A stretch of 64,000 nt of DNA. It comes from Octopus vulgaris. Its lineage: Eukaryota. The stretch is from the NCBI GenBank assembly GCA_951406725.2, contig OX597817.1, forward strand, positions 82,336,001 to 82,400,000, read 5' to 3'. Position numbers and translations under genes: made by a program. Shown in pieces: positions 714 through 46,500 of the stretch (position 1 is the first letter of the stretch; each line of letters begins with the position of its first letter). Under the pieces are notes generated by a model. That model did no database searches. It had not been told where the DNA came from and was given only the letters and a program-made list of their open reading frames with translations.

Positions 714-754
714 ACTTAACCGGTTTCACTCTTTGGTAAAAGATTGTCAAAAGT
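714..754 (-). ncRNA. Minimal type-I hammerhead ribozyme motif, U3-A8 variant
   Basis: Minus strand: actt UUGACAA u-cuuuu-acca-aagag-u GAAA ccgg UU aagu; stem I actt/aagt, 5-bp stem II, palindromic stem III. Confidence 0.6.
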
Positions 755-767
755 TACATTTAAGGAA

Positions 768-996
768 ACATTGAATAATATGGGTTCAAAAAAGTTTTTT
801 ACATAATTGTCACATTGAATATTATGCATTCAAAAAAGTTTTTTACATAATTGTCACATTGGATATTATGGGTTCAAAAAAAGTTTTTTACATAATTGTC
901 ACATTGAATATTATGCATTCAAAAAAGTTTTTTACATAATTGTCACATTGGATATTATGAATTCAAAAATGTTTTTTTATACATAATTGTCACATT
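768..996. repeat. 44-bp minisatellite, ~5 units
   Basis: Unit aaaaaagttttttacataattgtcacattgRatattatg(cat/ggt)tc repeated in tandem. Confidence 0.9.
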
Positions 997-40500: not shown

Positions 40501-43500
40501 GGGAAAGTGTTAGTCAAGATTAAAATGTGTGTACAAACGAAAAATTGTCTTGGGAGAAAAAAACGGAAGTAAACATTTGCTGATAATCAGTATTCCTATA
40601 CTCGCTTCTAGACAATTAGATTTCTTTGACGCCAAATATCTAAGAAAGGAGACAACACATAGAAACTGCTTTAACAGTGAAAGACCTATTTTGCCCAAAA
40701 CCATCGTGCATAAATCCTTATTAAGCCCTTAAGTTGATATGAAGAAACAAAATGTACGTATAGCTCAGGGGAAGATACACACTGAGCGTATATATATATA
40801 TATATATCTATATATATATATATATATATATATATATATATATATATATATATATGTTTCCTTGGTTTTGTGTTTATGTTTTCGTTTCTCATTGTGTTCG
40901 ACGTTTTTTGATGTCCTGTACCCATATATGCATGTATATATACATGTAGATGTAGGTACATACATGTATGTATGTATATATGCATATATTTTATTTATTA
41001 ATTTGTTATCATATGATGGAACGCACGCATCCATTTCTAAGTAAATTTGTTCTCCCTCCTTTCCTCAAATAATACTTTAATTGTTCCACGTCCTCGCGTT
41101 GCTGTGTTTTTTTCTGTATTTTCTTGTTTGGATTAACTTTAATATATATATATATATATATATATATATATATATATATATATATATATATATATATATA
41201 TATATATATATATATATATATATATATATATATAATACTTAGAGAATGGAGAAACATACTTAAATCAATAGAACATCAACTACCACGTCCTACTTTAATA
41301 CACCATTACATATCAGTAAAGGCATTATACAAAATATACAGTAAGAGTAAGTAGACAAAGAGATATAAGTATAAAATTTCAAATATAATATGTAATTAAA
41401 TCAAATCTGACAGCTGTTTCGGCAGTGAGGGCAGTCATACCTCATTTAACCTATAAGCTATAAAGGCAGGTATAAATGAGGCATTAACAGGATGCCCACG
41501 GCCTCTTCAGAGAATTAAATTTGTTATAATTGTGATATTATTTAACCATATACATATAAATATAAAAATATAAAAATGTAAAATATAAAAACTTATACAT
41601 AAACTTCATAATGCTACACTATATAATATAATACTCATTGGTACAATAATGGAAGGTAAACAGAACAAAATAAAACAAAATATATATCAGTGTATATATT
41701 AATATTATAAGCACCGATATTATACATATTTGGCTAATAGTTTAAAAAAAAACAAAAAAAAACTAACACATAGGGAGATAAAAAAAAAAAATATATATAT
41801 ATATATATATATATATATATATATATGTATATATATATATATATATATATATATATATATATATATATATATATGTGTGTGTGTACATGTATATATATGT
41901 ATTTATGTATATACATGTATATGTGTGTATATACACACATACATATATATATATAAGCATATTGATAAATAATATATATAAATGCACAATCTTTCACACA
42001 CATGCAGGCGCATATATACACGTGCACCTATAACCATATACTTACATATATATTATTAAAAACATACACATGAATATTCAAGTAATGCCACAACTATATG
42101 ATTGCACTCATGTCTCTCTTTCTTCTCTCTCTCTCTCTCTCTCTCTCTCTCTTTCTATATCTAGCTATCTCACTCCTTGAATATATGTGTATGTACATAC
42201 GTGCATATATACACCCAAATCCACTTACGTATACGCGTATAAATGTATACAAACAACACACCATTACACGTGCGTGTTCATACAAAGTGACACGATATGC
42301 ATATATATCTTTGTTCGTATGTATGTAAGTATGTATGTATATATATATATATATATATATATATATATATATATGTATTATGGAGATGTACTTGCATAGT
42401 AAGTGACCTGATCTGAGATCGTGTCCTGGAACGAAAGCAATTGCAGCATGGAACGTGTTTATAAGCCACTAAAGAAACACAAAACCGTTAGATTCACTTA
42501 AAGATTTAAATTTAATTTGCCAAAATATTTTCGTCGCTTTGAGACTGCGATCTGTTCACTAACAAAACTCCGTGCTGGATCGGAATTTTGTCGATGAACA
42601 GGTCATGGTCTCAAAGCGACGAAAATATTTTAGCAAATTAAATATAAATGTTGAACTGAATCTAACGTTTTTTTGTGTTTCTTAAATGGCTTATAAACAC
42701 CTTCCACGCTGCAATTGTATATATATATATATATATATATATATATATATATATATAGATAGATAGATAGATAGATAGATAGATAGATAGATAGATAGAT
42801 AGAGAGCATATATATACTTGCCTATATATGCACATACAAGCACACACAAACTTAGAAACTTACATATCATGTATATCGTTTGTAACGACAGAGATAATAC
42901 TTACTAGTTTACTGATCCATTGATCCACATTCACTCAAAGACGTATATACATGCGTAACCATATACACTCACATAAACTTACACACTTTCTAAGTTCGTG
43001 GCCCTGGGTGTACGTTTCACTACACAAGTACATATACACATATAGAGATACACTGACAAATTTACATTTTTACATATATGTAAATACATGCATACAAATA
43101 TAAATGTATATATTTCTATATATATTATGGTCTAATAGGGTAGAAAATCGGAGTAATTTCAAGCCAGTGTTCAACGAAGATAAAATTATATGATTGTTTA
43201 ACATGCGTTCCATGAATCCTTTAAAACAGGTTTAGTTCGTAATTACATATTGCCTTCCCATCACCCATAGATGCATAATATACACACACACACACATACA
43301 CACACATGTGTGTGTGCATGAACGTTTCTAGATATGCAAGTATATAATGACAGTCACAAACTTATAGATAACATACATGTATACGCAGAAAAGTCGTATG
43401 TGTATATAAATATATATATATATTTATATATATATATATATATATATATATATATTTATATTTATATACACATACGATTTTTCTGTGTATACATGTATAT

Positions 43501-46500
43501 TATCTATATATATATATATATATATATATATATATAGATAGATAGATAGATAGATAGATAGATAGATAGATAGATAGACAGATAGATAGATAGATAGATA
43601 GATAGAACGATAGATAAATCTATGAATGTATATCTATCAATCAATCAATGCTATTTTGTTTTCTGAGAAATACACACAACAGTAAAAAAAATCTTGAGGG
43701 TTCAGTGAGGCGAAAATATATGCAATAAGGTAATTAGACGGTTGGAAACTTTAGTTATAAGATGACTGAATACGTGTAAAGTATGTGTTCAACGGAAATC
43801 TTGGTGGGAAAACGTGTCCATCATTAACTTAATACTATAATTGGAAAAATGATTGATGCATAAGACATATCTGAAAAACAAACTAGAAACGCATAAGGGA
43901 GCGTATATAATGGAAAGTGTAGGATTTTACAGATAAATAATGAAAAGCACTACAATGCGCGGAGTGCTGTATTATTATTTAATTGAGAAGTGATAAAATA
44001 AAAGTAAAGAAAAACTAAAAATAATGAAAACATAAAATATGTAATAAACAATAACGTGACTAGAAATATATTATGATTCATTTATAGAAATAAATTTTAA
44101 AATGTAAATGTGATGAAATCCGATTAAGAGACGATAAATGTTTAAATGACACATGGTAAATGATGAATGCTATGCAATAAATATTAAAAAGCTAGCTAGT
44201 AAGAATTTAAGACGAGGTCAGAGTTAAAAATGATAAGTGATAAAGAAGAGGAATTGTTTTAGAATTCCAAAATAGAAACAGTGGAAAGTAATGTAAAAAT
44301 GAATGTATTGCAAAAAACAAATTTCTGGAAACCGATAAGATTATTCAATTGATATAAACAAATGATATATTACTAACAAATAATAATAATAATAATAATA
44401 AAAATAAAAATAAATTCTATCTGCTATAGGCACAGAGCTTAAAATATTGGGGGAAGGGTAGTCGATTACATTAGCCCCAGTTCTCAGCTGGCACTTATTT
44501 TATCGAATCCGAAAGTATGAACGGCTAAGTCTACCTCGGCGAAATTTGAACTTAGAAAGTAAAAACAAACGGAATGCCGCGAAGCATTTTCTCCGATGTG
44601 CTATAGTGTGTGTCAGCTCGCTATTTTAATGATATTAACATTCCTTTATAATATAGGCACAAGGTGTGAAATTTATGGGGAGGGGGTAAGTTGATTACAT
44701 CGACCCCAGTGCGTAACTGGTACTTATTTTATCGATCCTGAAAGCAAAGTCAACCTGGGCGCGGAATTTGAACTGAGAGCGTGAAGACGGAGAAAATATC
44801 GCTAAGCCTTTTGCCCGGTGTGCTAACGATTCTGCCCGTTCGCCACCTTTTTAATAATAATAATAATAATAATAATAATAATAATAATAAATATATAAAT
44901 TTCGAATAAATATATCATAACTATGAAGTGAATGCAGTATAGATTTGAATAATAAGTAAATTTTAAAACCAAAGCAATGAAGAAAGCCAACAAATAGAAA
45001 TAAGAATGTCAAAACCTAGGAAGGAAACTAACAAGGATAGTGGATATATGAAGATGAAGTCAAATGTATATATGTGAATATCAGTTGATTAGCTGTTGGA
45101 AAAAAATGGATTAAAAATATCTTAGTGTGTTGAATATTTTAAGTTTACGCGAGGACACTATAATTTTGAATTTAACTTTAGAATTTCCCATTTTAACAAA
45201 GCGTAGCAACTTGGTCTAGTTTCGTTTATAAATGTAATACATATTAGAAGTCAAACTCTACCCAAAAAGTGAACTTTGAGCATGTATAAATGTACAAAGT
45301 TAGAACATATTCTGTGGAATTTGGCGACCGGCAAAATTACTAAACGACTGTCAGCGTTTCGTTTCTTTTACGTAGATATGGATGCATAGTGTGCTTGTGT
45401 TTATCTATATGTTTGTTTACGGCGATATTGTTTTGAGAGTGTGTCCATGTTCTGTAACTTAACGGTTCGACAAATGGTGTTGCAAAAATATGTACGAGAC
45501 TGAAAGCACTGGGATATGATATATTTAAATTAGCGCTCCAGCATGGCCACAGTCTAATGGGTAAATAGTCGAAAGCAGTAAACCAGTTAACGAACAGACA
45601 CACGCATACACACACTCCTCACACTCAAAGAGTACTATAAAATATGGATTCATAGAATCATGTGGTTATCGTATCTGAGTTGAGCCGTAGATGTTACCAT
45701 GATGTTCAGGTGATCTGATGAGCTAGCTTTCTTTATTTGCACGAATTCGTGAATAAACAGCAGTACAACACTGAGCATATATATTAATGCAACCATTTAC
45801 GTATAATGTTTTGCATACTATAATTAGTAATCCATGAGGAAGTTTACCAAACAAATGTTTGGTAAACTTGACCATGGAAGTCATCTGTATAAGCAAATCT
45901 ATCTTCACTTCTCACAACTTTTTAATTTATGCTTCTATGTGTGTATTTGTGTGTGTGAGAGAGTGTGAGTGTGTGCGCTACGCCATATGATAAATAGATC
46001 TACTTTAATCGATTTGATTGTTTATTGAAGTTGAAATAGAAGAAATAACGAAGGTTCGTATTTGTTTCTGTTCGTTTTAAATAAATATGATTCTTCTTAC
46101 TACCTTATATAGTAGCCCATATCGACGCTTCATAAACAATAATCATATGAGAATGGGAGTTGAACGTAGGCGAAGTTTGAGCGCTAATTCCTAGGGTAAA
46201 TTGTTGCGCGTTCAGCGCATCAATAACTTCATATATATATATATATCAGAGAATTCACAAAAAACAACAACAAAAGACGAAGAAAGGTGTTGTAGACAAC
46301 AAACATATGTATTAGTTTAACGCTCGGGAAATGAAAAAGTCTTTAACGTTTCGAGCCTACGGTCTTCCACAGAAAGAAACAAGGAGAGAAAATAAAGAAT
46401 GTGTAGTGGCTAGCGATCTATCATGCCGGATATATATATATATATATATATATATATATATATATATATATATATATATATATATATATATATATATATA

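Follow-up and report, generated by a model that had tools for sequence, protein, structure and literature searches.

A 64,000-nucleotide stretch of the Octopus vulgaris genome (contig OX597817.1, positions 82,336,001 to 82,400,000, forward strand; hereafter the window) contains six motifs laid out like hammerhead ribozymes, in or beside (TA)n tracts, whose cores differ at catalytic positions 3 and 8. The locus thus raises the question of whether a natural hammerhead can exchange its 3-8 base pair. The original prediction held that these are minimal ribozymes of several non-autonomous families, that Penelope-like element (PLE) machinery mobilised them and that they have sampled alternative 3-8 pairs. 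Comparison of family copies indicates that families maintain 3-8 pairing while using, between them, all four Watson-Crick pairs. We read the motifs as type I hammerheads in PLE terminal repeats, with 3-8 pairing kept, likely through selection for cutting RNA as paired copies (probability about 0.72).

The window alone says little. A relaxed hammerhead descriptor gave four matches against a shuffled mean of 1.1 (maximum 4), and three against 0.48 (maximum 2) when a paired 3-8 was required. This is barely above chance, and we therefore gathered genomic loci for each element; the case rests on these family data. These loci, at most 30 per element, were the best matches among 86 to 3,454 candidates in a microsatellite-rich genome of 2.8 Gb; L-numbers, such as L185, denote genomic loci. 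Rfam hammerhead models had no match in three window stretches scanned separately, even at E<=10, and no hammerhead was among the 150 of 327 whole-window matches listed. This miss is uninformative for these motifs because the copy at 41510, which has a canonical core, was also unmatched.

Hammerhead motifs in dispersed repeat families

All six predicted core 7-mers are present, five of them on the minus strand. Position 3 of the core lies at 750 (-), 29151 (+), 29659 (-), 41510 (-), 42559 (-) and 46372 (-), the numbers in the prediction being low coordinates. A (TA)n tract lies at, or no more than five bases from, at least one end of every element, in agreement with the prediction. Each motif is a member of a dispersed repeat family, and each, or its family majority, has the core, stem II, GAAA, palindrome, H17 and stem I. 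A paired 3-8, G12-A14, A15.1-U16.1, H17, stems I and II and a palindromic stem III are all found in family majorities.

The family-majority cores are UUGACAA (750 and 29151), GUGAACA (42559), CUGAAGA (41510), CUGUGGA (46372) and CUGAUGA (29659). Core and stems are thus kept at the family level, and U3-A8 and G3-C8 are fixed family-wide, so UUGACAA and GUGAACA do not represent copy-specific decay. Among the three cores put forward as C3-G8 examples, CUGAAGA and CUGUGGA hold family-wide, but CUGGUGA is a decayed copy, because the 29659 family reads CUGAUGA (24 of 36 copies, against two with CUGGUGA). That majority rules out CUGGUGA as a variant family.

The window copies at 750 and 41510 have intact cores. 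The copies at 29659 and 46372 carry private changes. Those at 29151 and 42559 have private stem or palindrome changes and sit inside long inverted repeats, and their window hairpins fold with 76-83% of bases paired.

Pairing between positions 3 and 8

With a descriptor left free at positions 3, 6, 7 and 8, we searched the window, every locus and 80 evenly picked stretches of 10 kb, 1.9 Mb in total. Of 24 clusters with at least three copies in two loci, the majority sequence keeps the fold in 19 and fails in five; the 41510 family is among the five, owing to a stem I mismatch. Positions 3 and 8 are paired in 18 of the 19 families, compared with 44% of 41 matches in shuffled sequence (binomial test, 4e-6, mostly driven by C3-G8). 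The 19 comprise 13 C-G, four U-A, one G-C and one U.G family, with one U-A row being a mis-registered C3-G8 motif of the C4 type. Cores of this type (CCGACGA, CCGAAGA and CCGAUGA) were seen in hammerhead families or subfamilies at L046:2392, L111:344, L048:239 and L265 near 8412.

A genome pattern free at positions 3 and 8 (short-loop group) yielded 4,300 matches, compared with five for controls. By hand count, the first 100 listed comprise 61 U-A, 32 A-U, one G-C, four U.G and two other mismatches. Ninety-four of these 100 therefore pair at 3-8, where about 51% would be expected if the two positions were independent. Searches blind to positions 3 and 8 thus bear out the predicted covariation and add A3-U8 as a fourth pair.

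Genome patterns anchored on GAAACCGGT matched 200 times for G3-C8 (98 in controls) and 1,898 times for A3-U8 (414 in controls). This search recovered further G3-C8 subfamilies and an A3-U8 family with a good stem I and PLE open reading frames (ORFs) upstream. Five or more stem I pairs were present in five of 20 G3-C8 loci and eight of 20 A3-U8 loci, the remainder being decayed or chance matches. Among 18 copies chosen by core, stem I itself covaries: both sides change in seven of ten pairs, and 91% of cells are paired, compared with 16-39% in slid controls. One Fisher test was set aside, the selecting pattern having fixed about half of the ribozyme columns.

Position 17 partly tracks position 3. 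Among loci L357-L396, A3-U8 families have C17, G3-C8 families with the palindrome ACCGGU have A17, and A17 also occurs in some U3-A8 families. Cores with U3.G8, as expected midway between C3-G8 and U3-A8, were seen at G000:C1:21474846, 22620440, 34574029 and 34574434 and at L094:712.

These variants might instead be neutral relics, in which single masters with chance double changes spread and the motif was unneeded. Few masters do make many copies, and chance double changes do occur: a single inverted insertion (L382, G000:C1:7826716-7829740) has one U3-A8 arm and one A3-U8 arm. U3.G8 copies also exist, as four of the 100 first-listed genome matches and one small family. Neutral relics, however, predict that unpaired states are fixed as often as paired ones, and only one of the 19 families is unpaired. 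Compensatory stem I changes across families and the presence of G3-C8 in two distant lineages also argue against this explanation, which we consider very unlikely.

Penelope-like elements that carry the motifs

Five motifs lie near the 3' end of elements of the reverse transcriptase (RT)/GIY-YIG type inserted at (TA)n, and the sixth lies in a 444-nt unit with similar ends. Where we call a PLE Neptune-like, this is judged from its motifs. Truncated 5' ends were observed together with inverted 5' copies or partial tandem arrangements. Two alternative 3' ends occur in the 750 family (24 versus 26 ends, 40 nt apart), the G3-C8 family (about 150 and 207) and the 29659 family (about 205 and 290). 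They were not seen in the 41510 family, where 19 of 45 ends could not be resolved. The truncation, the inverted 5' copies, the (TA)n boundaries and the two 3' ends are all recognised PLE hallmarks (PMC8557442, PMC11167929). The ORF-bearing parents and PLE-type ends uphold the proposed link to Penelope-like elements. A CX2-5CxxC linker before GIY-YIG, described as a Neptune feature that Nematis also has (PMC8557442), is recognisable by eye in L349 as well as in the parents of the 750, 29151 and A3-U8 families.

The element with the 750 motif is a 5'-truncated Neptune-like PLE copy of 2.36 kb (673..3031, minus strand), 96-98% identical to the ORF-bearing loci L185 and L187 (97% by tblastn). It retains the last 37 codons of the GIY-YIG region (3030-2920), followed by a (CA)n-rich 3' untranslated region (UTR) with a 44-bp tandem repeat (768-996) and a terminal (TA)n tract. 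The parent scores 22.7 bits for PF01541 in L185 (cut-off 22.6) and matches RVT_1 in L187 (E 0.0016). Its last 128 bases (673-800) are identical in 40 of 40 scored genome matches, and comparison of its copies marks the parent as a young Neptune-like PLE. The hammerhead (711..757, minus strand) has the U3-A8 core UUGACAA at 750-744, a U10.1.U11.1 mismatch at the base of stem II, the palindrome ACCGGU and U17 at 718, with a predicted cut at 718/717. Contigs of runs guessed to be RNA cover 673-800, although contigs cannot show ends or expression. Record 8 of run X1 is a 417-nt high-depth contig akin to this motif, with differences at position 17, in loop II and downstream, and is perhaps a short U3-A8 element.

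The second U3-A8 element (28983..29326) is an inverted pair of 3' ends from another Neptune-like PLE family, lying between two (TA)n tracts. Its inverted repeat of 141 nt is 91% complementary and folds as a single long hairpin. The plus-strand hammerhead (29144..29185, core 29151-29157) has the palindrome ACCAGU where the family has ACCGGU, and on the minus-strand arm opposite, whose core lies at about 29102-29096, A3 is private to this copy. U3-A8 is present in 27 of 31 copies of this family. PLE ORF remnants were found in eight of 30 loci and lie upstream of the motif in the extended loci L305-L309. tblastn ties the parent to that of 750.

The G3-C8 motif belongs to an older PLE subfamily. 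At 42374..42717, an inverted pair of 3' ends (about 205 and 150 nt) forms one long hairpin between (TA)n tracts. The hammerhead (42516..42566, minus strand) has the core GUGAACA at 42559-42553, an extra G after A9, the palindrome AAUAUU and U17 at 42523. Private changes are G10.1A in this window copy and G3A in the plus arm, whose core spans 42594-42600. The parent, L349, carries a 755-codon frame, probably of the RT/GIY-YIG type, in long inverted pairs, 1 kb upstream of the G3-C8 motif; copies of this ORF type are mostly 98.7-99.7% identical, some 96%. An ORF remnant 83% identical to the L349 frame lies beside an old-type G3-C8 copy in L198. In its predicted fold, a young G3-C8 copy forms stems I and II.

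The G3-C8 core is kept in 82 of 96 copies, a count biased upwards by 30 loci whose retrieval pattern already contained that core. The fixation is also seen in BLAST-picked copies and public-run contigs, which are both free of this bias. The core has no variant at 10% or above in contigs of four runs with four organism labels (ten contigs in one run), and none of the 24 variant places listed for these contigs falls in it. Subfamily differences inside the motif are confined to N7, H17, loop II and the outer stem I base, or keep pairing. A metagenome scan with the G3-C8 parent protein returned one weak match only.

The canonical C3-G8 motif at 41510 lies in the 3' end of a young PLE (41239..41792, minus strand) whose parent is L181, with a 743-codon frame probably of the RT/endonuclease type. 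Copies of this family often occur as inverted pairs 0.8-4.6 kb apart. The hammerhead (41400..41519, minus strand) has the core CUGAAGA at 41510-41504, the palindrome ACAGCUGU and C17 at 41409. The L349 and L181 frames have no Pfam match, and their BLASTP matches to the 750 parent are weak (E 3e-6 and 7e-5). By eye, L349 has YVDD and L181 YRDD, which we take to be RT-type motifs, and both have what we presume to be GIY-YIG-type motifs. These motifs, the weak BLASTP matches and the element structure suggest that both frames are of the RT/GIY-YIG type.

The motif at 46372 lies in the 3' end of a very abundant PLE family (46246..46430, minus strand), matched 16 times in 0.8 Mb of sampled DNA. Its longer copies run into a decayed PLE ORF (L301), and tblastn ties the parent to that of 750. 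The hammerhead (46340..46377, minus strand) combines C3-G8 with A6U (CUGUGGA at 46372-46366) and has an extra A after A9, the palindrome ACGU and U17 at 46345.

Parent proteins place U3-A8, A3-U8 and G3-C8 within one Neptune-like group. Most comparisons among the U3-A8, A3-U8 and ACCGGU-type G3-C8 parents give 41-62% identity, with lower values for L306 and L359, which are decayed; the 42559 parent shares 13-21% identity with each of these parents. G3-C8 therefore probably arose twice.

Among the six, only 29659 appears from its copies to behave as a non-coding unit. The window holds a near-unit copy (29569..29976, minus strand) of a 444-nt non-coding retrozyme-like element with two preferred 3' ends, and its hammerhead (29607..29664, minus strand) reads CUGGUGA through a private A6G. 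Longer-than-unit copies occur elsewhere: 18 of 30 distinct loci (33 rows, three duplicates dropped) exceed one unit, and L147 is a head-to-tail dimer, as expected if a circle or multimer is copied around. A non-coding unit of 150-450 nt with a type I hammerhead and tandem copies is what defines a retrozyme, and this family has all three. An ORF remnant near family copies (L127/L310) was considered as a parent; it lies beyond a (TA)n tract and was taken as an unrelated neighbour.

The prediction of six independent non-autonomous ribozyme elements, or retrozymes, that depend on PLE enzymes to move thus holds for 29659. A short G3-C8 master of about 205 nt may also have existed: the 5' end of most G3-C8 copies lies some 20 nt before the core, and 28 of 30 sampled old-type copies (L191-L220) share nothing upstream of one sharp 5' point. 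Candidate causes of this sharp point are an internal start site, an RT stop or a short master. The upstream UTR is common to two of 30 pattern-picked copies and one sampled copy, and 542 exact genome matches hold the UTR junction. Such copies lead into the long RT/endonuclease frame, which rules out a non-autonomous G3-C8 family with a fixed 5' end. ORFs or remnants also lie upstream in the 750, 29151, 41510 and 46372 families. The retrozyme explanation is therefore largely refuted for five of the six, and as an account of the set we regard it as scarcely credible. Nor are the carriers all short and minimal: although the layout stands in family majorities, the 750 element spans 2.36 kb and the 41510 motif is not minimal because its stem II is 83 nt long.

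The hammerhead elements lie in or around a multi-vWA-domain gene (PF00092) with plus-strand exons at 16637-17257, about 20953-21177, 22872-23531 and 27515-28153, and the four single-arm ones are all antisense to its exons (n=4). The window also contains a decayed RT/thumb-like region of another PLE (62830-64000, plus strand; about 30-37% identical to the L181 frame) and two mariner-type transposase remnants, at 48526-49148 (plus strand; PF17906 and PF01359) and 13891-14223 (minus strand; weak HTH_32 match only). A U6 small nuclear RNA-like match at 56973-57062 (plus strand) scores 39.6 bits against a gathering score of 44 and is probably a pseudogene.

Catalysis, shape and known hammerheads

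How might selection act on the 3-8 pair? In a tandem transcript, two motifs would pair through their palindromes and so build stem III, since such a palindrome, going by PMC4209133 and PMC6765202, cannot close the stem alone. Cleavage would follow position 17; it would be slow and probably assisted by the element's protein. Cutting would release unit-length or circular RNA, which the PLE enzyme would copy into AT-rich DNA. Selection would act on master copies, and inserted copies would mostly decay. The 3-8 pair was absent from crystals of minimal ribozymes but is present in the tertiary-stabilised fold (PMC3884650). That it is conserved therefore points to selection on chemistry, not on a hairpin. 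An engineered C3G/G8C exchange partly restores a PLE hammerhead (PMC11167929).

The motif might instead be kept as a folded structure, such as a protein-binding or dimerisation signal for the PLE enzyme, with cutting unneeded and the 3-8 pair kept for shape. This explanation would accommodate A6U, fixed in the most abundant family, and U4C, fixed in sister subfamilies, as well as genomic copies that hold an uncut motif and, for G3-C8, begin about 20 nt upstream of the core rather than at the cut site. Catalytic mutants also had no effect on insertion in vitro, where uncleaved RNA was the main template (PMC11167929). It accounts poorly for the retention of G5, A9, G12-A14 and A15.1-U16.1, and for the choice of C17 in A3-U8 families and A17 in G3-C8/ACCGGU families, by which a 3-17 pair is avoided. 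RT priming, moreover, maps far downstream of the motif (also in PMC11167929). We consider maintenance for shape unlikely, and favour selection for cutting.

Several observations nevertheless weigh against selection for cutting. Judging by their decay or their confinement in long hairpins, most copies in the window itself are not functional ribozymes, and inserted copies keep an uncut site. U6 is present in 53 of 55 copies of the 46372 family, the only one that lacks the A6 of type I hammerheads; a natural A6C ribozyme is slow, at less than 0.1 per min (PMC3088659), and it is the most abundant family here that has A6U. In folds, G3 with U17 (42559 family) and U3 with A17 (29151 family) can lengthen stem I, which is expected to slow cleavage. 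In vitro, the Anolis PLE hammerhead needed protein and insertion did not depend on the motif; RNA-seq gave no reads ending at its site (PMC11167929). On the statistical side, copies are related by descent, and the counts reflect some 20-25 families rather than thousands of events. Eighteen chosen copies show both-side changes in all five stem I pairs and the 3-8 pair, but they were picked by patterns fixing G3-C8 or A3-U8, and their 3-8 count is no test. A within-family test of G3-C8 is weak, with about three changes expected in constrained sites and one, pair-keeping, seen. The parent-protein tree is noisy and poorly resolved, its frames being decayed.

A bolder version, in which PLE lineages moved repeatedly among all four 3-8 pairs (G3-C8 at least twice) and tolerated A6U, all still cleaving and probably protein-aided, is tentative, and we would put it somewhat below even odds. 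If all four pairs do cleave, the genome would hold a natural swap experiment, PLE hammerheads would be selected for catalysis, and CUGANGA-based searches would miss a large share of animal ribozymes. Because the 3-8 pair belongs to the active fold, its covariation in nature between related families signals, at the level of sequence, selection for catalysis. The young, near-identical U3-A8 and G3-C8 families with long open frames are ready test substrates, and descriptors for counting ribozymes in animal genomes must widen.

The set is well supported as variants of an established ribozyme type within an established class of element. Lunse et al. (RNA Biol) reportedly described small PLE hammerhead variants with a diminished palindromic stem III that cleave as dimers. 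In the literature searched, which may have missed such cases listed in that survey or in the supplements of PMC4209133 and PMC3088659, we found no natural G3-C8 or A3-U8 and no family-wide A6U. Searches on G3-C8 or A3-U8 and on octopus PLE hammerheads turned up only lab mutants or U3-A8, G3-C8 occurring solely as a lab mutant (PMC11167929, PMC3884650). The role of PLE hammerheads is unsettled: cutting in vitro is poor, one is dispensable, and one paper suggests that they may simply be parasites of the elements (PMC4209133, PMC11167929, PMC8557442).

Minimal type I hammerheads in the pseudo-long terminal repeats (pLTRs) of metazoan PLEs were described by Cervera and De la Pena (2014; PMC4209133). 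Theirs share the type I layout, the short palindromic helix III and the extra base between 9 and 10.1 with the octopus motifs, and likewise occur as single truncated copies and as opposite-strand pairs 100-700 bp apart. They include a U3-A8 variant with about 1,300 matches in Schistosoma mansoni. CUGANGA searches do miss such motifs, as predicted, but the U3-A8 blind spot was already known because of that publication. The octopus set differs from the part of that work available in its G3-C8 and A3-U8 family states, in U3-A8 with U10.1.U11.1 in two families, and in A6U fixed in one superfamily.

Perreault et al. (2011; PMC3088659) similarly reported natural U3-A8 covariation, a U10.1-U11.1 mismatch and a low-activity A6C ribozyme. 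Unlike the octopus families, the variants there are rare rather than high-copy retroelement families, and the available part mentions neither G3-C8 nor A3-U8. The 29659 element, with its 444-nt unit, type I hammerhead, tandem copies and PLE-type ends, resembles animal non-LTR (long terminal repeat) retrozymes (PMC7229834; bioRxiv 10.64898/2026.07.22.740005); this likeness covers one of the six elements, whose core is canonical. Poseidon of Anolis carolinensis (Frangieh et al., 2024; PMC11167929) also has a pLTR hammerhead, two RT starts that give a 'tail' and AT-rich targets. In Poseidon, G3-C8 is an engineered rescue, whereas in the octopus it is the natural state of a young family.

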